Below are positions 4,301 through 31,517 of a stretch of 64,000 nucleotides of DNA, one piece after another. Source of the stretch: Xenococcaceae cyanobacterium (lineage in GTDB: Bacteria > Cyanobacteriota > Cyanobacteriia > Cyanobacteriales > Xenococcaceae). The first letter of the stretch is position 1; each line of letters starts with the position of its first letter. The stretch spans positions 31,126 to 95,125 of the forward strand of contig JBFRWK010000058.1 in assembly GCA_051439545.1 (NCBI GenBank), given 5' to 3'. The translations under genes and the position numbers were made by a program. Below the pieces are notes generated by a model. The model searched no databases. It had not been told where the DNA came from and saw only the letters and a list, made by a program, of their open reading frames with translations.

Positions 4301-5152
4301 GTGAAACCCTATATTTTTGCCTTGACCGCTATTATTTCCACCTTTTTAGTCTTATTAAGTACATTTAAAGAAGGAAACACTCACAATGATGCTTCAGTAA
4401 TCAGAGTAGGATTTGAGCAACATCGGGTTGGTACAGTCTACGATTATTACGCTCAAACCAAAGATTGGAATGTAGTTTGGTCTAAATCTGATTGGATGAA
4501 TAACTATACAATGATTACCGATAGTCAAGCTCATTCTCAGACAAAAGCTTTAAGAATAACTTATCCTGCCAATGCTACCGCAGGGGGTAGTGCAGCCTGG
4601 AAACTTCCAGAAGAGAAAGAATATTATCTTTCTTACTGGGTCAAGTTTGAAGAGGATTTTGATTTTGATGGTTCTAAGAAAAGTGGTGGAAAGTTACCAG
4701 GGTTAGCAGGTGCAGGAGGCTATTGTAGTGGTGGTCAGATTTGCACGGGGGAAAATGGATTTTCTTCTAGATATATGTGGGGCGAAAACGGAAGAGTAAA
4801 ATTATATTTGTACCACATGAATAAACCAACCAAATGGGGTGAAAACTTTTGGTTAGAAGATAGTGAGGGGCAAGATGTCTATTTCCAAAGAGGAAAATGG
4901 CATAATTTAATCCAACGAGTCAAAATAAATGACGGTATTCTAGCCAACGGCGAAATAGATGTTTGGATGGATGGAGAACAAATGCTTTCTCTGAGGGGTC
5001 TTCAATTCGTTAATAACTATAAAAGTATCGACAGTTTAATGTTTAGTACTTTTCATGGGGGTAATAGTAGCGATTGGTGGCCAGAGCGAGAAGTACACAG
5101 CTATTTTGATGATTTTGTAATTTCAACATCAGCCAGAGACGTTGGTTTATAG
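4301..5152 (+). CDS. exported concanavalin-like / polysaccharide-lyase-like (PL14-type) protein
   Basis: N-terminal anchor or signal 'YIFALTAIISTFLVLLST'. 'GGKLPGLAG' and 'GEIDVWMDG' resemble the polysaccharide-lyase family as I remember it. GTG start. Confidence 0.45.
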   Translation: MKPYIFALTAIISTFLVLLSTFKEGNTHNDASVIRVGFEQHRVGTVYDYYAQTKDWNVVWSKSDWMNNYTMITDSQAHSQTKALRITYPANATAGGSAAWKLPEEKEYYLSYWVKFEEDFDFDGSKKSGGKLPGLAGAGGYCSGGQICTGENGFSSRYMWGENGRVKLYLYHMNKPTKWGENFWLEDSEGQDVYFQRGKWHNLIQRVKINDGILANGEIDVWMDGEQMLSLRGLQFVNNYKSIDSLMFSTFHGGNSSDWWPEREVHSYFDDFVISTSARDVGL

Positions 5153-5349
5153 TCTTAAATTCTCAAAACCATTTACTTAATCTTTAGTTACAAAAAACAA
5201 CAATAGTTTAGTTTTTTCTCAGATAATTGCACGAAAACTGCACAAAGACCCTGATTGAATAGTTTTAGTCCAAAAGCCACTGACATCCTAACTAGTTAAG
5301 CAAGTTAGGATTCAGGTTTCTAAACATTTATTATTCAGGAGAAACTTTA

Positions 5350-17698: not shown

Positions 17699-18325
17699 TC
17701 AAAGCCTAATTAGTCCCTTTCGCAATCCCAAGGTAACTGCTTCGGTGCGACTAGAGACATCGAGCTTAGAGAGAATCGAACTGATGTGAAATTTAACGGT
17801 ATGTTTAGATATATGAAGTCGTGAGGCGATCGCTTTATTATCCAAACCGACTCCTAACAACTGCAATACTTCTACTTCTCTAGAAGTTAGATAAATTGCC
17901 GAGGGAGATTCTGGAGTAATAGCAGGCTCGCTTTCCCCAAAAGATGCTAACTCTGGATGAATTACGATCAATCCAGCCATTACAGCATCGATCGTGGCAA
18001 TCATTTCCTCGGTATTAATTAGACGGGGTAAGAAAGCCTTAAAACCGAGACTGAGATATTCCCCCATTTCTTCAGTAGTTATTGAATCGCTTAACAAGAT
18101 TCCTGCCAGCTTGAAATCTACTGTTAACAGCCATCGCTCCAACCACCATAAATCTCGATCGAGCATTCGTTCTAATAGTAATAGATCGAAAGGGCGATCG
18201 CTCAAAGCTATTAAACTGGTTTCATCGATAAAACTCCCTACTATTTGTAAATCGGAGCGAGACAGGATGCTCATAATTCCAGCGATGGTAACTGAGTTAG
18301 AGTCATATACTGCAATCCTAATCAT
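17699..18325 (-). CDS. LuxR/NarL-type HTH regulator with atypical (Glu-for-Asp) receiver domain
   Basis: C-terminal 'LTSREVEVLQLLGVGLDNKAIASRLHISKHTVKFHISSILSKLDV'. The receiver-like N-terminus reads 'PFDLLLLERM' where the phospho-Asp is expected. The ATG overlaps the upstream stop (ATGA). Confidence 0.75.
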   Translation of the reverse strand: MIRIAVYDSNSVTIAGIMSILSRSDLQIVGSFIDETSLIALSDRPFDLLLLERMLDRDLWWLERWLLTVDFKLAGILLSDSITTEEMGEYLSLGFKAFLPRLINTEEMIATIDAVMAGLIVIHPELASFGESEPAITPESPSAIYLTSREVEVLQLLGVGLDNKAIASRLHISKHTVKFHISSILSKLDVSSRTEAVTLGLRKGLIRL

Positions 18326-18990
18326 CGAGAGATGGTTTTGATAAAATGTTCTACTCTTTGAGAGGGTATTGCCAAAGCCAAACCACCAAAAATTGCTACA
18401 TTAATCCCAATCACTTCACCACGAGCATTAGCTAAAATACCTCCAGAATTACCAGGAGCGAGACGAATATCGGCAACGATCGAACCATTGGGATAACCGA
18501 GATCGTCAGATGTTTTCTCTGTCCCATTAAGTTTAGTTTCTGCAAATTTCTGCCTAAGCGAGGCGTGGATAACCCCCATAGTTAAAGTCCCACTAAAACC
18601 GTAGGGATTACCCATTGCTAAAACTATTTCTCCTGGACGCAAAAGTTGAGAATTGCCGATGATAGGAGTAGGTAAGACCTCGCTTTTCTCAATTTTTAAT
18701 TGGATGGCAGCTAAATCGGCATGGGGGTCACTGGCAATTACCGACCCTTCGATAACTCTACCATTTTCTAGTTTTACCGAGAGGGGCGATCGAGTTTCCC
18801 AATTTTGCCCAATTGAGGTTTTGACTGGCGACTTCGACCTCCCCACCACATGAGAATTGGTTACTACCAAGCCTTTACTCGACCAAATTACCCCCGAACC
18901 TCCAGTATAGCGATCGCTAATTTCCACGGTCGAGCTTCTCAATTTTTGGGAAATTACTACTAATTCAGATTCTATATTACTAACGCTCAT
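18322..18990 (-). CDS. PDZ-less trypsin-fold (S1C/HtrA-like) serine protease
   Basis: Triad contexts are intact: 'VVTNSHVVG', 'HADLAAIQL', 'APGNSGGILAN'. ATG at 18990 is preferred; the ORF track uses TTG at 19011. Confidence 0.75.
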   Translation of the reverse strand: MSVSNIESELVVISQKLRSSTVEISDRYTGGSGVIWSSKGLVVTNSHVVGRSKSPVKTSIGQNWETRSPLSVKLENGRVIEGSVIASDPHADLAAIQLKIEKSEVLPTPIIGNSQLLRPGEIVLAMGNPYGFSGTLTMGVIHASLRQKFAETKLNGTEKTSDDLGYPNGSIVADIRLAPGNSGGILANARGEVIGINVAIFGGLALAIPSQRVEHFIKTISR

Positions 18991-19909
18991 TTCTCTTTCC
19001 GCTATCACCAATAGTTAGAGATAAATTTTGTAATAAACCTGCGCGAATCAACTGTATTTTGATAGTTTTGCCTACATTTTGTGGTTCTAAATAGGCTTGG
19101 ACATCTCTTAACTTTTCTATAGGGGTATCTTCAATTGAAGTTAAAATATCTCCCAGTAAAACGCCAGCTTGTTCGGCGGGAGCTAATGGTTCTAAGTTGA
19201 CTACCATCAATCCTTGCTTGGTATTTAAAGACAACTTATCGACTAAAGAGTCGGGTAAATAAACGGGTTGCATTGCCAACCCCAGATAACCCCGACTAAT
19301 ATTTCCCGTGGACAACAACTGCTCGACAACGCGATCGACCGTAGTAGCAGGTATAGTCAAGACGCTGCGACGAGGGCCAGTAGTATTGAAACCTACAACT
19401 TTTCCTGCTGCATTGACTAAAGCACTACCGCCACTTCCAGGGTAGAAATTAAGGTCTAAACGAATAAAGCGATCGATCTTTCCCCCCAGACTGCTGCGCC
19501 ATGAACCACCTACAGTACTAATTACTCCCTGAGAGACAAACAAACCTCTATCTTTGTCTCGACCAACAGCAAGTGCCAAATGACCTACTTTAAGTTCGCA
19601 GTTGCTATCTATAGGTGCAATAGGTAGAGAAACTTCAGTTTGAAATACGGCTACATCCGTACTGCGATCGCGTCCCAATAGAGTAACGGGGGTAGTTTCA
19701 CCATCGGGCAAAATTACGCTAATTCCTTCAGAACGTTTGATATTTTCTTCAGAGGTAATAATTATGCCTTCACGCCAATAGATACCGCTACAAGGAAAAC
19801 GCTGCCCTTCGATCGCGACTACAGATTTACCCACATTTTCGGCAATATCGGCTAAAGAATCTGAAAAAGCTACTAAGGAATTATTAATTGAATTTGATGC
19901 TGATGTCAT
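18980..19909 (-). CDS. HtrA-like protein with PDZ-like C-terminus and degenerate catalytic motifs (probable pseudoprotease)
   Basis: Trypsin-fold similarity is present ('STDVAVFQ', 'GVISTVGG'). The His box reads 'IIITSEENI' and the Ser box reads 'YPGSGGSALVN'. The C-terminal region 'GYLGL..GLMVVNLEP..PAEQAGVLLGDIL' is PDZ-like. Confidence 0.65.
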   Translation of the reverse strand: MTSASNSINNSLVAFSDSLADIAENVGKSVVAIEGQRFPCSGIYWREGIIITSEENIKRSEGISVILPDGETTPVTLLGRDRSTDVAVFQTEVSLPIAPIDSNCELKVGHLALAVGRDKDRGLFVSQGVISTVGGSWRSSLGGKIDRFIRLDLNFYPGSGGSALVNAAGKVVGFNTTGPRRSVLTIPATTVDRVVEQLLSTGNISRGYLGLAMQPVYLPDSLVDKLSLNTKQGLMVVNLEPLAPAEQAGVLLGDILTSIEDTPIEKLRDVQAYLEPQNVGKTIKIQLIRAGLLQNLSLTIGDSGKRNER

Positions 19910-20008: not shown

Positions 20009-20161
20009 GTTGAAACTCTCTCTAACCAAATAAACCAACTTTTAACTACTATTGGTAGGGATATTAATAATTCTCCCGAAAAAACTCGCGCTATGGTTTA
20101 CGAATCCGATCCTGATGCAGAATGGGCAACTCAGGAAATACAAATTACAGTTACAGAGTAA
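20009..20161 (+). pseudogene. orphan 3' fragment of a caspase-family gene
   Basis: It encodes '..QLLTTIGRDINNSPEKTRAMVYESDPDAEWATQEIQITVTE*'. This is a paralogue of the tail of the caspase wreck at 24344-24494 ('..EKTRAMIYESEPEAEWATQQIQITVTK*'). Stops lie just upstream. Confidence 0.65.
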
Positions 20162-20215
20162 GGAATTTTGACTATTTAAAAAGATTTGAAGCTATAATCT
20201 TCTAATTTTACCTAT

Positions 20216-20395: not shown

Positions 20396-20906
20396 AATAA
20401 ACCCCAATCAGTTTTTATTTCTTGGGTGCTACGCTCTAGAGCAGGAATACGATTATCAATTGTAGCAATTCTCTCCTCTAATAACCTTAGCAGATCGGGA
20501 GTTATAGCTGGTTGTATCTCTGCTGTTCTTAAGAGTAATCTGGATATTTGAATGTAAAGATCGGCTGCTTGTTGAGAGATTGCGGTTAGTTCATCTAAGA
20601 GGATATCTGAAAAGTTTTTTTATACTGAATTTTGCCCCCCTAACCCCCCAATTCTGGGGGGAATATATAATAAAAGTCCCCCAACTTACCCCCAATGTTG
20701 GGGGTCACGGGGGCAGGGGATTTAGGGGGCTGAGATGTAACAAATTAGACTTCTCAGACAAGATCTAAAGCAATAATTGTTTCATTTGTCTCTCCAAAAC
20801 GTTCTAGAAGTAAAAACTCGGCTGCTTTGGCTTCATCGACAATATCCAGAAGTGTTTTCTGTAAATTTGCTAGGTTTAGTTTGAGTTCTGGGGAGATTTT
20901 TGCCAT
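20392..20906 (-). pseudogene. 114-codon ORF interrupted by a MITE
   Basis: 'MAKISPELKL..NETIIALD' (from ATG 20906) and 'ELTAISQQAADLYIQ..KTDWGLL*' are separated by the 164-bp element. Removing the element plus one ATCTAA copy leaves 345 nt, i.e. 115 codons in one frame. Confidence 0.7.
20599..20762. mobile_element. MITE (164 bp) with imperfect terminal inverted repeats and a 6-bp target-site duplication
   Basis: ATCTAA occurs at 20593-20598 and 20763-20768. Ends are 'gaggatatctgaaaagt' and 'acttctcagacaag'. The core 'ttttgcccccctaaccccccaattctgggggg..cccccaacttacccccaatgttgggggtcacgggggcaggggatttaggggg' is shared with 31431-31775. Confidence 0.75.
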
Positions 20907-21042: not shown

Positions 21043-22770
21043 GTGTCGGAAAGAAAATTATTAGCACAAGAAACTTCTAGCCAAGATAAGAAGATGGATA
21101 AATGGGCGGTAATAGTTGGTATCTCCGAATACCAATATCAACCTTGGAATCTGAATTATGCTCATCGGGATGCCGAAGAACTTTATAAATTATTGCTCAC
21201 CAAAAACGGCAGTCATTTTAAAAAAGAAAATATTACATTACTCACTAATCAACAAGCAACTAAACGCAACATCGGGATCGCACTTCATGATTTTCTGCAA
21301 AAACCAGACAGGGATGATTTAGTTATCATTTATTTTGCCTGTCATGGCGCACCCGATCCCAATAGACCCAATAACAACCTTTATTTACTGACATATGATA
21401 CCGAACCAGATAAAATAGCTGCTACTGGGTTAAGAATGCAGGAAATTAATGATGCCTTGAAAGATATATTGATAGCAGAAAAAGTAATTATCTTGGCAGA
21501 TACTTGTCATAGTGGCGGAATAGGCGGAAGAATCGGTAATAGAAATGCTTGCCAAAGCTCAGATTTGATGAATCGGTATTTACATCGTTTAAGTAATTCC
21601 AAAGGTGGAGTTGCTCTTTTAACTTCTGCCGAAGCCAGAGAAGTATCGCGAGAAGGAAAACAATGGGGAGGAGGACACGGAGTTTTTACCCATTTTGTTT
21701 TAGAAGGAATGCGTGGTGCAGCAGATGAAGATGGTGATGGAATAGTTACTACTGGGGAGCTATTTGAATATGTTCGAGAGAAGGTTAAACAAGAAACAGA
21801 TTATAGGCAGCATCCACATATTGGCTCGAATGGGTTCGATCGCAATTTACCCCTCGCAATTGCCAATAAACAAATCCAAATCTTAACTTTTCAGGTTATC
21901 ACAGTTAAAGAAGCAGAACTTTTCACCGAAGATTTAGGCGATGGCGTAACTCTAGAAATGGTCAAAATTCCTGGGGGAAAATTTTTGATGGGGACAGAAG
22001 ATGAGGAAATAGAAAAACTCTGCCAAACTTATAATGTGGAACATTTTAGAAGAGAAAGACCACAGCATGAGGTAAACGTTCCTAGTTTTTGGATGGGACA
22101 ATATCCCATTACGCAAGCACAATGGCGCATAGTAGCAGGATGGGAATCAATAGAAAGAGAATTAAACCCAGACCCCTCCTATTTTAAAGATAACTACGAA
22201 GGAAGAGACAGATGGACTAGACCAGTAGAAAATATTTCTTGGGAGGAGGCAGTAGAATTTTGTGCCAGGTTAAGTAAAAAAACCAATGGTAAATATCGCT
22301 TACCCACAGAAGCAGAATGGGAATACGCTTGTCGTGCTGGAACAGTAACACCATTTCACTTTGGCAAAACTATCTCTACTAAATTGGCTAATTATCGAGG
22401 CACTGACTTTGAATATGAAGGCAAAATGTATCCAGGGAATTATGGAAATGGGCTAAAAGGCATTTATAGAAAACAAACAACCCCAGTAGGATACTTTCAA
22501 GTTGCTAATGCTTTTGGTTTGTACGATATGCACGGAAACGTTTGGGAATGGTGTGCCGACTACCCGCACAATAGTTATGATGGTGCGCCAAGGGATGGCA
22601 GTGCTTGGGTGACAGGAGGAAATCCCGAACGCCGAATAGTACGGGGCGGTTCCTGGAACGATCTTCCTGCGAATTGTCGCTCTGCCCACCGCAACAATAA
22701 TACCCCCGCCAACCGCAACTTCATTATCGGTTTTCGGGTTGTGTGCGCGGTGCTGCCAGGACTCTTCTAG
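21043..22770 (+). CDS. orthocaspase (peptidase C14) fused to a C-terminal FGE-sulfatase / C-type-lectin-fold domain
   Basis: Caspase dyad contexts 'IIYFACHGAP' (His) and 'ILADTCHSGG' (Cys). C-terminal 'ERPQHEVNVPSFWMGQYPITQAQW', 'EAEWEYACRAG', 'HGNVWEWC', '[22 protein letters not shown]'. Start is GTG 21043 or ATG 21094. Confidence 0.85.
   Translation: MSERKLLAQETSSQDKKMDKWAVIVGISEYQYQPWNLNYAHRDAEELYKLLLTKNGSHFKKENITLLTNQQATKRNIGIALHDFLQKPDRDDLVIIYFACHGAPDPNRPNNNLYLLTYDTEPDKIAATGLRMQEINDALKDILIAEKVIILADTCHSGGIGGRIGNRNACQSSDLMNRYLHRLSNSKGGVALLTSAEAREVSREGKQWGGGHGVFTHFVLEGMRGAADEDGDGIVTTGELFEYVREKVKQETDYRQHPHIGSNGFDRNLPLAIANKQIQILTFQVITVKEAELFTEDLGDGVTLEMVKIPGGKFLMGTEDEEIEKLCQTYNVEHFRRERPQHEVNVPSFWMGQYPITQAQWRIVAGWESIERELNPDPSYFKDNYEGRDRWTRPVENISWEEAVEFCARLSKKTNGKYRLPTEAEWEYACRAGTVTPFHFGKTISTKLANYRGTDFEYEGKMYPGNYGNGLKGIYRKQTTPVGYFQVANAFGLYDMHGNVWEWCADYPHNSYDGAPRDGSAWVTGGNPERRIVRGGSWNDLPANCRSAHRNNNTPANRNFIIGFRVVCAVLPGLF
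22639..22769 (+). repeat. VR-like repeat: last 131 nt of the orthocaspase-FGE CDS
   Basis: 124/131 identical to 22956-23086. See findings. Confidence 0.7.
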
Positions 22771-22818
22771 CCCTTTACCCTCTTACCCTTTTGCCCTCTG
22801 CCCTTCTTTTCTTTGCCC

Positions 22819-22852
22819 TTTTTTTCGCGCGTAGCGCGAGCAATTTTTTTTT
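22819..22852 (+). terminator. GC hairpin flanked by T-runs downstream of the orthocaspase gene
   Basis: 'tttttt-TCGCGC-gta-GCGCGA-gcaattttttttt'. The stem is 22825-22830 / 22834-22839 and the T-run is 22844-22852. Confidence 0.6.
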
Positions 22853-22955
22853 CTATTTCAGACTCGATATCATTACTCATTACTTAATTTTTTAAGTAAT
22901 CTATACAAAATCGATTTAGGATCGCACTACAATTAATATCGGGGCAGGCATCAGT

Positions 22956-23086
22956 AAACGGGGCGGTTCCTGGAACAATAATCCTGCGAATTGTCGCTCT
23001 GCCCACCGCAACAATAATACCCCCGCCAACCGCAACTTCATTATCGGTTTTCGGGTTGTGTGCGCGGTGCTGCCAGCACTCTTCTA
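22956..23086 (+). repeat. TR-like repeat: non-coding, adenine-rich copy of the gene's 3' end
   Basis: Read in the VR frame it would encode '[43 protein letters not shown]', but it has no upstream coding context or start. Confidence 0.6.
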
Positions 23087-23238
23087 CTGTCAGAACTGGG
23101 CAATGGGAATTGTTCGGGCGTACTCAGAAGAGTCCAGACCTGTTCCAGCGAGGAAGGCAACGACCTCCGAAAATAAAACAGAGCCAGATAGCTTGGTAGG
23201 CGTGAGTCGAAGAGTTGTCTGGCTCATCTAATTTTAAA

Positions 23239-23408
23239 GCCCCCTAAATCCCCCAATCTTGGGGCAATACTGTTCGGTTAGTCTTTCAAGTTATTTCGTT
23301 CGCCCCCTAAATCCCCCAATCCTGGGGGACTTTAACGAATCTGACTCCCCCAAATTTGGGGGCTGGGGGGCTTAACCGAACGGTATTGAATCTTGGGGGA
23401 CTTTGACG
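23239..23408. repeat. MITE-like unit ('gccccctaaatcccccaatcYtgggggactttRacga') hosting a nested element
   Basis: The unit is split at 23264/23389 by the element below. An uninterrupted copy of the same motif sits inside that element (23302-23338). Confidence 0.6.
23265..23388. mobile_element. 124-bp MITE nested in another repeat, with 16-bp TIRs and a 10-bp target duplication
   Basis: TIRs are 'caatactgttcggtta' (23265-23280) and 'taaccgaacggtattg' (23373-23388), matching at 15/16 positions. A perfect direct repeat AATCTTGGGG lies at 23255-23264 and 23389-23398. Confidence 0.7.
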
Positions 23409-23453
23409 ACCAATGTAGATAAATCTACGCCTGATAAACAGTAAACAGCAAGC

Positions 23454-23877: not shown

Positions 23878-24494
23878 ATGACTGAATTAAGCAAATTTTA
23901 TGCTTTATTAATTGGGATCGATCGCTATGAACCCAATAGATATTACAAAGATTTGAAAGGTTGTGTTAGGGATATCGATCTAGTAGATGAATATGTTCGC
24001 AATACCCTCAAAGTACCGACAGAGCAGATCTGGAAATTGACCTCTCCCTTTGAAGAGACTTCGATTCTTTCTGAAATTCGATCGACACGACAGGAAGTAA
24101 AACCAACCTATGCCAACATAGTCCAGGCATTTAAGGAAATAACCGATACAGCGCGATCGGGAGGGTGGACAACACCACGGTGCATTAACTTACTGGATGA
24201 TGGACACTCTGACTAGCAGTACTTCTGTCTTAACCTACAAATCCCTCTACAATCGGATTAAGGGAATGATTCAGAGTAAATTTCCTCAACAATTACCAAT
24301 GTTGATAGGAGATAGCGGCAGAAGAATTGAGAACAAGAGGAGAAGCTCAAACTATTAATCCTCTCAATAATCTCTTGACTGCTATTGGTAGTGATGTTAC
24401 TAATCCTCCAGAAAAAACTCGCGCTATGATTTACGAGTCAGAACCAGAAGCAGAATGGGCAACTCAGCAGATCCAAATTACGGTTACAAAGTAG
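23878..24494 (+). pseudogene. caspase-family gene wreck (catalytic core deleted, frameshifted)
   Basis: N-terminus 'FYALLIGIDRYEPN..LKGCVRDIDLV'. After a frame change it reads 'HGALTYWMMDTL..LTYKSLYNRIKGMIQSKFPQQLPMLIGD', then the tail 'EKTRAMIYESEPEAEWATQQIQITVTK*'. The His/Cys dyad region is absent. Confidence 0.7.
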
Positions 24495-24503
24495 AGAAGT
24501 TCG

Positions 24504-25415
24504 ATGAAAAAAATTCTGATTTTATACTCAAATCCTAGAGGCGATCTCAAGTTAACTAGAGAAATCAAAGACTTGCAGAATGTCATCAAACGCTCCAAAA
24601 ACCAGTCTCAATTAGAGACGGAGTTAGAGTTAGATGTACATCCAGAAGAGTTGCAGGATTTATTACTAGAACACGAACCAAGAATTGTTCATTTTTGTGG
24701 GCATGGAACTGGAGAGTCAGGTTTGGTGCTAGAAGATCAAGCTGGACAGGAACAAGTAGTTAGTACAGAAGCTCTATCTAATCTGTTTGAGCTTTTTGAC
24801 AAGGAGGTTGAGTGCGTTTTGCTCAATGCTTGTTATAGCGAAATCCAAGCTAAGGAGATTGTGCAACATATTAACTATGTGGTGGGCATGAGTCATGAGA
24901 TTAGGGACGATGCAGCGATCGCTTTTGCCACGGGTTTTTATCGGGCATTAGGCTGGGGGAAATCCATTGAGGAGTCTTACAAGTTTGGTCGCAATGCGAT
25001 TCAAATTCAGATTGCCAAAGCTAATACTTCCCGTTCCCGAAGCTCTGGAGAAAGTCGCAAGTTGATAGCTGTCGATGTCGCCGAGCCAGTTATCATTCCA
25101 GAAGACTTAAAACCAGTTCTGAAGAAGAAGTCACCTCTGACTCCTTTCCCAAAAAAAGTGACCTCCGCTCCCTCAGTTGATTATCCAGATTCGTTAACTC
25201 AATCTCATTTTCCCCCCGAACTGATCGCAGCAGTTGAATCAGAAGAGCGTTATAAGGGATATCGAGAGCGGGCAAGAGAGACTTGGGATGAGTTTGGGCA
25301 ATCCCATCTTGTTGAGAGAGAACCCATAGGTCAAAATGAATATCGTCAGCGCAAAACCTTATTAAATAAAGTCAAAGACTTCTGGATCGAAGGTTTTCTC
25401 AAGCCTTCTTTATGA
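24504..25415 (+). CDS. caspase/CHAT-like (His-Cys dyad) N-terminal effector domain typical of cyanobacterial STAND NTPases; truncated before the NTPase
   Basis: 'ILILYSNPRGDLKLTREIKDL', 'RIVHFCGHGTGESGLVLED', 'VECVLLNACYSE', 'YVVGMSHEIRDDAAIAFATGFY'. It ends at '..VKDFWIEGFLKPSL*', exactly where a NACHT/NB-ARC module normally starts. Confidence 0.6.
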   Translation: MKKILILYSNPRGDLKLTREIKDLQNVIKRSKNQSQLETELELDVHPEELQDLLLEHEPRIVHFCGHGTGESGLVLEDQAGQEQVVSTEALSNLFELFDKEVECVLLNACYSEIQAKEIVQHINYVVGMSHEIRDDAAIAFATGFYRALGWGKSIEESYKFGRNAIQIQIAKANTSRSRSSGESRKLIAVDVAEPVIIPEDLKPVLKKKSPLTPFPKKVTSAPSVDYPDSLTQSHFPPELIAAVESEERYKGYRERARETWDEFGQSHLVEREPIGQNEYRQRKTLLNKVKDFWIEGFLKPSL

Positions 25416-25563: not shown

Positions 25564-25812
25564 ATGGAAAATATCTCAGTTTCTAACGCCCGTAGTAACC
25601 TTTATCGCCTCATCGATGAAACCGCAGAATCTCATACGCCGATCGCGATCGTGGGCAAACGCAACACGGCAGTTTTAGTATCTCTAGAAGATTGGGATGC
25701 CATTCAAGAAACCCTTTATCTAATGTCAATTCCTGGCATGAGAGATTCAATTGTTGAAGGAATGGCGACTCCTTTATCAGAATGTGCAACAGAGGATGAA
25801 TTGGAGTGGTAG
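25564..25812 (+). CDS. Phd/YefM-family antitoxin
   Basis: 'MENISVSNARSNLYRLIDETAESHTPIAIVGKRNTAVLVSLEDWDAIQETLYL'. Confidence 0.8.
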   Translation: MENISVSNARSNLYRLIDETAESHTPIAIVGKRNTAVLVSLEDWDAIQETLYLMSIPGMRDSIVEGMATPLSECATEDELEW

Positions 25813-31291: not shown

Positions 31292-31517
31292 TTGTCTAAT
31301 TTCAAGTTTTTTTCTTCCCTTCTTTTGTAAGATTACCTCCAAAAGTATGACCGTGCATCAAACAATTAGATGATAGTCTAGCAACTTCTGACAAGACTGT
31401 TAATAATCAAAGCAAAAAGCGATCGCCTCATAGTCGAAAAAATCTCTAACAAAATGATAAAATATTCATTTTTGCCCCCCTAGCCCCCCAAATCTGGGGG
31501 GAATATATGACAAAAGT

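Follow-up and report, generated by a model that had tools for sequence, protein, structure and literature searches.

A 64,000-nt stretch of the genome of a Xenococcaceae cyanobacterium (contig JBFRWK010000058.1 of assembly GCA_051439545.1; hereafter the window, numbered from its first nucleotide) appears to carry two components of a diversity-generating retroelement (DGR). With a probability that we put at about 95%, positions 22639-23232 comprise the variable repeat (VR) of a gene encoding an orthocaspase with a C-type-lectin-fold (FGE) domain, followed by a self-contained template-RNA gene of the cyanobacterial clade of DGRs. An original prediction made for this DNA had proposed a pair consisting of a VR and a template repeat (TR) with no reverse transcriptase (RT) nearby. 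This proposal is now supported by the homology of the spacer RNA that follows the TR with RNAs encoded next to genuine DGR RT genes.

A repeat search of the window recovered the near-identical repeat that had been reported, as a two-copy direct repeat (22641-22769 and 22958-23086, offset 317 nt) with 125 of 129 positions identical (97%). Column-by-column comparison over the slightly longer span 22639-22769 versus 22956-23086 gave 125 identities in 131 columns rather than the 124 first counted, because a seventh mismatch (22770/23087) lies just outside the span; homology stops abruptly beyond both ends. The six mismatches, written gene copy/downstream copy, are 22639 G/A, 22640 T/A, 22660 G/A, 22663 C/A, 22664 T/A and 22760 G/C. 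Five of them fall on an A of the downstream copy, at the same five positions as originally listed, and the recount likewise gave 28 adenines in the 131 nt of that copy, five of which differ. The chance of at least five of six mismatches falling on A is P = 0.002; within the conservative 129-nt core three of four do so (P = 0.03). Read from TR to VR, AAA becomes GTA and AAT-AAT becomes GAT-CTT, and the triplets TTC ATT ATC are present in both copies, both as had been described. The original prediction had also suggested looking for further copies: a 116-nt pattern with the adenines masked matched the window at these two copies and nowhere else, against a chance expectation of 0. An adenine-free 29-mer of the repeat had no exact match in the genome or metagenome contig collections, and a 22-mer spanning the junction of TR and spacer had none in the viral contig collection.

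The upstream copy closes a 575-codon open reading frame (ORF) in which Pfam detects Peptidase_C14 (1.1e-17) and FGE-sulfatase (1.9e-54; residues 305-567 of 575), bearing out its earlier description as an orthocaspase-FGE gene. The GTG start at 21043 is backed by a homologue (P0003) that begins MSERKL; exact look-ups of the protein from either start codon returned no identical entry. The VR encodes 43 residues at the extreme C-terminal end of this FGE/C-type-lectin-fold protein, the position and fold expected of a DGR target.

The closest matches of the locus come from Pleurocapsa and Xenococcaceae metagenome-assembled genomes (MAGs). Three related target genes were recovered, of two kinds. One (P0018/L001-L004) encodes a CHAT-FGE protein, and its VR together with about 125 nt of 3' untranslated region (3'UTR) is near-identical to window 22641-22895 at non-adenine positions, so that the 3'UTR module is common to a differently built target gene. 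The other (P0001/P0241/L017) is the orthologue of the target in Pleurocapsa sp. MO_226.B13, with 86.7% DNA identity and without a TR downstream of it. The VR of L001 differs from the TR of a relative described below (L006) at 14 adenine sites and 8 other sites, and from the templates overall at 13-14 adenine and 8-13 non-adenine sites; we attribute the non-adenine differences to lineage divergence. The VR of L017 is, by inspection, likewise rewritten mainly at AAY codons. Because both VRs are heavily rewritten mainly at template AAY codons, we take the target/VR family to be a working DGR family in nature. Separately, the four independent assemblies of the CHAT-FGE gene (L001-L004) stop within a few bases of one another, roughly 240 nt past the stop codon, which suggests that a repeated element just past the conserved 3'UTR breaks the assemblies.

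The ends of the two repeats resemble the initiation of mutagenic homing sites of other DGRs (IMH in the VR, IMH* in the TR), as the original prediction had remarked of the G/C mismatch after the GC-rich stretch. The putative IMH and IMH* differ by one base within the shared stretch (22760/23077), following the GC-rich run, and this difference is kept across genomes: G in the VRs of L001 and L017, C in the TR of L005/L006. In every genome seen the VR ends in CCAGGACTCTT(C/G)TAG and the TR in CCAGCACTCTTCTAC. At the opposite boundary, it is plausible that homology reaches out to 22639/22956, and the mismatches at 22639 and 22640 are both probably real, because at 22639 both templates carry A, with G in the window VR and C in the VR of a relative. 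Downstream of the VR lies an inverted repeat (22824-22840) that doubles as the terminator of the target gene. Its stem is kept in L001 with a GGA loop instead of GTA, and it is absent after the L017 VR. This could possibly be a counterpart of the hairpin or cruciform of other DGR targets, a role that we hold as uncertain because its distance of 54 nt from the VR end exceeds the 4-34 bp found in phage DGRs (PMC3240598).

The nature of the downstream copy emerged from comparison with other genomes. A degenerate pattern derived from the repeat identified a single GTDB genome, Xenococcaceae cyanobacterium MO_188.B29 (L005), and the junction 22-mer identified a metagenome contig (L006) with the same sequence as L005. 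Each has a stand-alone unit that is 95.4% identical to window 22905-23231 and built in the same way: the TR is preceded by a 16-nt leader and some 35 nt of further sequence, and is followed by a 145-nt spacer with a long hairpin at its end. The similarity sets in sharply at 22905, upstream of which the window and L005/L006 share nothing. The unit in L005/L006 follows the 3' end of an insertion sequence (IS) transposase, beyond which the contig ends, and no target gene stands beside it. In L006, tblastn found no RT within 6.8 kb downstream of the unit, the upstream side being cut by the contig end inside the IS.

Related units were also found next to RT genes. Using Brt of Bordetella phage BPP-1 as a query led to cyanobacterial DGR cassettes on plasmids, and we compared the avd-RT loci of Nostoc sp. 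UHCC 0926 plasmid pn2 (L008) and Microcystis aeruginosa FD4 plasmid p1FD4. A Nostoc "hypothetical protein" annotated 21 nt past the RT stop codon corresponds to TR plus spacer and matches window 22959-23225 by tblastn (E = 5e-23); the Nostoc and Microcystis plasmid units also align to the window TR and spacer at the DNA level. Homologues of the RT yielded a Xenococcaceae MAG with the order avd-RT-TR (L010) and further metagenome DGRs (L011-L016). The window TR and spacer are 69-72% identical to units directly 3' of the DGR RT genes in L008-L015, with blastn alignments to L010-L015 covering window 22959-23200/23219. L016 was left out of this set as it matches only the first ~106 nt of the TR. 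Units placed immediately behind the RT stop codon come from Nostoc, Microcystis, the Xenococcaceae MAG and two metagenome DGRs. When an RT-linked copy close to the window TR was sought in relatives, five RT-linked units were recovered, all only 69-72% identical.

Some observations on these cassettes stand apart from the window. In L016, positions 5061-5276 after the RT read RGGSWDNNPNNCRSAVRYVNYARVVRLLNFGVRVVC, which resembles a VR that has undergone diversification more than an adenine-rich TR and has no spacer match; the contig may have an unusual cassette order or be rearranged. The Nostoc unit (L008 7078-7356) is the 92-aa RefSeq entry WP_337961485.1, following the DGR RT and read in the VR frame. 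As this frame is not conserved in the other units, the entry is probably an annotation artefact, and a 102-aa gene call at L011 6998-7306 appears to be another such case. Cyanobacterial RefSeq records thus annotate TR-plus-spacer units as hypothetical proteins. Upstream of the RT, L013 (3128-3824) and L016 (2516-3252) each have two four-helix-bundle accessory genes, one with a 23S_rRNA_IVP match and one with a bAvd match.

Seven units were folded together with RNAalifold (Table 1), and the predicted window RNA shares the conserved fold of the RT-linked DGR RNAs, in which the TR is enclosed by a helix between leader and spacer and has its 3' end paired with spacer bases. Outside the TR the model contains 50 pairs, with 94% of cells paired, and compensatory changes are found in 18 of the 50. 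None of 500 shuffles scored as high, and sliding the partners out of register left 39-51% of cells paired with 2-4 compensatory pairs. The inferred RNA start near 22940 coincides both with helix H1 and with the point at which homology to the RT-linked units begins, namely GGGGCAGGC. A frame of about 104 codons is open through TR and spacer, and we considered and rejected a small protein here. Because the frame is broken at different places in the other units and so is not conserved, the segment is best described as an RNA gene rather than a protein gene. The leader was likewise rejected as the 3' end of an RT gene, since it gave no alignment to RT C-termini. Rfam at gathering thresholds returned no match in the window. 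On the strength of these alignments we regard 22940-23232 as a bona fide DGR template-RNA gene. We also observed that the IMH*-like CTCTTC at the TR end (23079-23084) is predicted to pair with GAAGAG of the spacer (23127-23132) in 7/7 units; such a helix could position the start of cDNA synthesis.

The original prediction had found no ORF for an RT or for the accessory protein Avd, and dedicated searches agree. A regular-expression search for YxDD across the 64 kb found no RT-like ORF, tblastn against the window reached no better E than 0.7 with Brt and the Nostoc and Microcystis DGR RTs as queries and no better than 0.04 with three Avd proteins, and Pfam found no RVT_1 domain in 19 window ORFs. 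Two candidates were examined and rejected: a 112-aa ORF (23878-24216) as Avd, being the 5' end of a caspase pseudogene, and a 303-aa ORF (24504-25415) as RT, being a CHAT protein. It had also been said that debris of miniature inverted-repeat transposable elements (MITEs) stands where the RT should follow. MITE-like repeats do lie just downstream of the RNA gene. However, complete relatives have the order target - avd - RT - TR/spacer, with the TR starting ~20 nt past the RT stop codon, and because this clade order puts avd-RT between target and TR, the missing module belongs upstream of the TR rather than at the MITE array. In the window, 185 nt separate the target stop codon from the TR.

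A template RNA without a neighbouring RT could still operate. A promoter of its own would drive transcription of the RNA from near 22940 to the hairpin near 23232. By analogy with Bordetella, an RT-Avd complex specified by genes at another site in the genome would bind the spacer, the TR would be copied with errors at adenines, and the cDNA would replace the VR, guided by its GC-rich IMH end. There is precedent for such an arrangement: Avd, TR and brt are functional if a plasmid provides them in trans, and published examples include loci that lack an RT and are diversified in trans (PMC5758913, PMC10907252; see also PMC12875486). We lean slightly towards the view that the locus is still served in trans by an RT elsewhere. 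The spacer is 98.6% identical between the window and L006 (2/145 nt differ; 9/131 in the TR), whereas identity is 77-91% in the adjacent caspase gene and 87-90% in the target gene. That the spacer is more conserved than the neighbouring genes suggests purifying selection on a unit lacking an RT. Of the two spacer differences, one lies within a helix as a G-U/G-C exchange; no helix is disrupted. The VR, moreover, carries every lineage-specific substitution of its own TR, from which it follows that the two exchanged sequence recently. The stand-alone unit is also present in L005/L006, where the 35 nt upstream of the inferred start are conserved. A gene for a 706-aa caspase-domain protein follows the unit in both genomes, intact in L006 and a pseudogene in the window. 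This common neighbour indicates that the TR unit and its downstream neighbour are syntenic, and that the stand-alone arrangement predates the split of the two lineages.

A fossil locus is a serious possibility, although we do not think it the probable one. The cognate RT would be gone, RecA-type gene conversion alone would keep TR and VR alike, and the adenine differences would be leftovers of the last mutagenic event. This would fit the absence of RT and Avd from the window, a TR that has lost AAY codons, the adjoining pseudogene and MITE arrays, and the record of degenerate DGR loci with MITE arrays in place of the RT (PMC10907252). It would also fit the mismatches themselves: of the 26-28 adenines only 3-5 are altered in the window VR, and these are all among the first nine (clustering P = 0.0013). 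The lack of changes at the last 20 adenines indicates that the 3' 95 nt were made uniform without mutagenesis, for which gene conversion between the repeats, 317 nt apart, is the simplest route. Against a fossil stand the near-identity of the spacer and the intactness of its helices next to coding DNA that has diverged to 77-91% identity, as well as the stand-alone layout common to two diverged genomes, since the RNA gene would be expected to have decayed had the RT been lost long ago.

Several observations weigh against the interpretation of this locus as a DGR served in trans. No RT or Avd is encoded within the 64-kb window. The usual DGR software requires at least seven adenine mismatches, a threshold that this VR/TR pair does not reach, and it would therefore fail detection. 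The template is without four adenines formerly at canonical AAY codons. At the per-adenine rate of 0.48 seen in L001, finding no more than 5 changes in 28 adenines has P = 0.0009, and 0 changes in the last 20 has P = 2e-6. The promoter is inferred from two sequences only, and a consensus promoter scan called none at 22905-22939. The conservation argument rests on two genomes only, and the spacer could instead be so similar because the unit was transferred recently. Finally, the surroundings, a pseudogene and MITEs, are decaying.

Between the window and L006 the TR as a whole has diverged further than the spacer. TR changes were polarised with the L001 and L017 VRs and five RT-linked TRs, giving five window-specific changes: 23004 A>C, 23015 C>T, 23037-38 AA>TT and 23041 A>T. 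Four of the five are at adenines of AAY codons (AAC>CAC, AAC>TTC, AAT>ATT; P = 0.01, with small numbers and a post hoc test), and all five are present in the VR too. The window TTC ATT codons are derived by A-to-T change, as six other TRs, including that of the nearest relative, have AAC AAY. The CAC common to VR and TR is inferred to be derived as well, because the nearest relative has AAC and the relatives' VRs agree, the RT-linked TRs being uninformative at this codon. TGC is ancestral (L017, RT-linked TRs), and GCC-AAC is common to the L001 and L017 VRs.

These changes raise the possibility, which we rate as rather unlikely, that the template was rewritten by adenine-mutagenised sequence flowing back into the TR. 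Backflow might occur by VR-to-TR gene conversion, favoured by the 317-nt spacing, or the cDNA might home into the TR itself, an event that a single-base difference between IMH and IMH* could permit. In DGRs the TR stays invariant, and either route, if true, would breach this rule. Taken together with an RNA gene that bears a promoter, lacks an RT and is conserved in two genomes, it would amount to a split DGR in which template and target drift jointly. The adenine-biased template changes common with the VR hint that transfer from TR to VR is not strictly one-way at short distance.

The earlier alternatives fare much worse. The original prediction had allowed that both copies are VRs descended from a remote template, and had named as a refutation the case that the downstream copy is what remains of a paralogous target gene after deletion. 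Either would explain why non-canonical CAC, TTC and ATT occur in both copies where a canonical template would have AAY, and why a frame stays open for ~104 codons through the downstream copy. However, that frame is not conserved in other units, and homology to the gene ends exactly at the VR limits. At its end the downstream copy reads CCAGCACTCTTCTAC, the TR type that the relative's TR also shows, and what follows is not the target 3'UTR but a TR-specific spacer homologous to RT-linked DGR RNAs. There is no coding homology upstream of 22956, and tblastn with the FGE domain matches only 22959-23084, so that we reject both versions as very improbable. An ordinary local duplication of the gene 3' end without any retroelement, which a direct repeat of 97% identity at short distance would allow, can be dismissed almost entirely, as the repeat limits match those of VR and TR, the mismatches are biased to adenines, the flanking spacer is homologous to DGR RNAs with covariation, and the unit occurs without an adjoining target gene in another genome.

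Table 1. Features of the DGR locus and its surroundings, in window coordinates.
Feature	Position	Strand	Basis
DGR target gene, orthocaspase (Peptidase_C14) with C-terminal FGE-sulfatase/C-type-lectin-fold domain	21043..22770	+	Pfam, homologues
Variable repeat (VR), last 131 nt of coding sequence	22639..22769	+	Repeat; same segment rewritten mainly at TR-adenine positions in relatives' genes (L001, L017, P0001, P0018)
IMH-like VR 3' end, GC-rich stretch GCGCGGTGCTGCCAG then GACTCTTCTAG	22744..22769	+	Differs from TR end CACTCTTCTAC by G/C at 22760/23077
Conserved target 3'UTR module	22771..22895	+	Alignment with L001-L004 near-identical up to aattttttaagtaa, then diverging; absent after TR copy
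GC-rich inverted repeat (TTCGCGC GTA GCGCGAG) then T-run, target-gene terminator	22824..22850	+	Terminator scan
Putative template-RNA promoter, -10-like TACAAT at 22928-22933	22905..22939	+	Kept in L005/L006 (3 differences)
DGR template-RNA gene: leader 22940-22955, TR 22956-23086, spacer 23087-23232 ending in long hairpin	22940..23232	+	Homology to stand-alone and RT-linked units
Template repeat (TR), 28 adenines, reading NNN..N..H.NNN..N.NFII	22956..23086	+	Comparison with VR and relatives
Spacer RNA with conserved helices	23087..23232	+	RNAalifold on 7 units
H1 (leader-spacer helix, encloses TR)	22940-49 with 23137-47	+	RNAalifold
H2 (TR 3' end-spacer)	23079-84 with 23127-32	+	RNAalifold
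H4 hairpin	23096-104 with 23109-17	+	RNAalifold
H5 hairpin	23150-56 with 23161-67	+	RNAalifold
H6 hairpin	23181-93 with 23213-25	+	RNAalifold
MITE-like palindromic repeat array (GCCCCCTAAATCCCCCAATCTTGGGG and relatives), not part of DGR	23239..23409	.	Repeat families D3, D8
Internally deleted pseudogene of 706-aa caspase-domain protein	23878..24500	+	tblastn with L006 protein: aa 1-95, 245-304, 644-703, 73-83% identity

The wider neighbourhood has a G+C content of 38.8% over the window and contains further MITE-like copies at 20634-20703 and near 31485 and 31628; these are intergenic, have the core CCCCCAAnnTTGGGG and form clusters on both sides of the target/TR region. A further caspase-gene fragment is located at 20024-20158, upstream of the target gene, and a repeat pair (D2; 20039-20171 with 24372-24504, 83% identical) corresponds to the caspase C-terminal end, so that target, TR unit and MITEs lie between the two caspase-gene fragments. 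The 303-aa CHAT-domain ORF starts at the very end of the caspase pseudogene. Other neighbours, within 25564-25812 and 17699-19909, encode a Phd/YefM antitoxin, two tandem trypsin-like peptidase ORFs (the second with PDZ domains) and a LuxR-type regulator. The neighbourhood is protease-rich, of a kind linked to conflict systems.

Orthocaspase-lectin proteins are thought to be sensors in cell-death or conflict pathways, and the locus adds a Pleurocapsales example to the cyanobacterial DGRs that diversify them. It indicates that a template-RNA gene can persist away from any RT, with its fold intact and a promoter-like leader, in at least two genomes. DGR finders anchored on the RT, which seek the TR in its vicinity, would miss such loci and their targets.

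The individual elements have precedents, as orthocaspase-lectin DGR targets, TR-derived non-coding RNAs (ncRNAs) with remote targets and MITE-ridden loci lacking an RT are already published (PMC7517822, PMC4143802, PMC10907252). Orthocaspase N-terminal domains in particular belong to a described class of cyanobacterial DGR variable proteins (PMC7517822). In the prototype, Bordetella phage BPP-1 (avd-TR-brt, with the VR in mtd; PMC3240598, PMC12875486), information flows from TR to VR and, as in the window, changes fall at adenines, the repeats have a GC-rich end where IMH and IMH* differ slightly, the VR is followed by an inverted repeat and the TR by a structured spacer. BPP-1 has its TR between avd and brt and no detectable sequence similarity to the window; its type of hairpin lies 4-34 bp from the VR with a GRNA loop, whereas that of the window is 54 nt away with a 3-nt loop, and the window IMH and IMH*, unlike those of BPP-1, differ at only one position within the shared stretch.

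Two systems are closer in organisation. The TR of Trichodesmium erythraeum IMS101 is a discrete, abundant ncRNA of ~265 nt with its own start site and many remote CLec-type targets that share VR and 3'UTR sequence (PMC4143802); the window unit is predicted to be ~295 nt. The Trichodesmium TR is located just downstream of the RT gene (PMC4143802), whereas the window has no RT within 22 kb upstream or 41 kb downstream. In Thiohalocapsa PB-PSB1, a multicellular bacterium, degenerate DGR loci without an RT or other parts contain MITE-like arrays, and the targets, conflict-system proteins with peptidase effectors, are diversified in trans by a complete DGR elsewhere (PMC10907252). That system belongs to another phylum and RT clade, and trans activity is described there and proposed for the window. 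Its MITE arrays replace the RT, whereas the window MITEs are downstream of the RNA gene and the missing avd-RT would be upstream.

The nearest counterparts are the cyanobacterial-clade cassettes of Nostoc sp. UHCC 0926 pn2 and Microcystis aeruginosa FD4 p1FD4. Like the window, they have an FGE/C-type-lectin target with its VR at the extreme 3' end, and their TR and spacer are homologous to the window unit (69-72%) with the same helices. The window differs in lacking avd and RT in cis, in its few adenine mismatches, and in a template RNA that directly follows the target and apparently has its own promoter. It is a clean example of a template-RNA gene surviving apart from its RT, with a hint of a drifting template.

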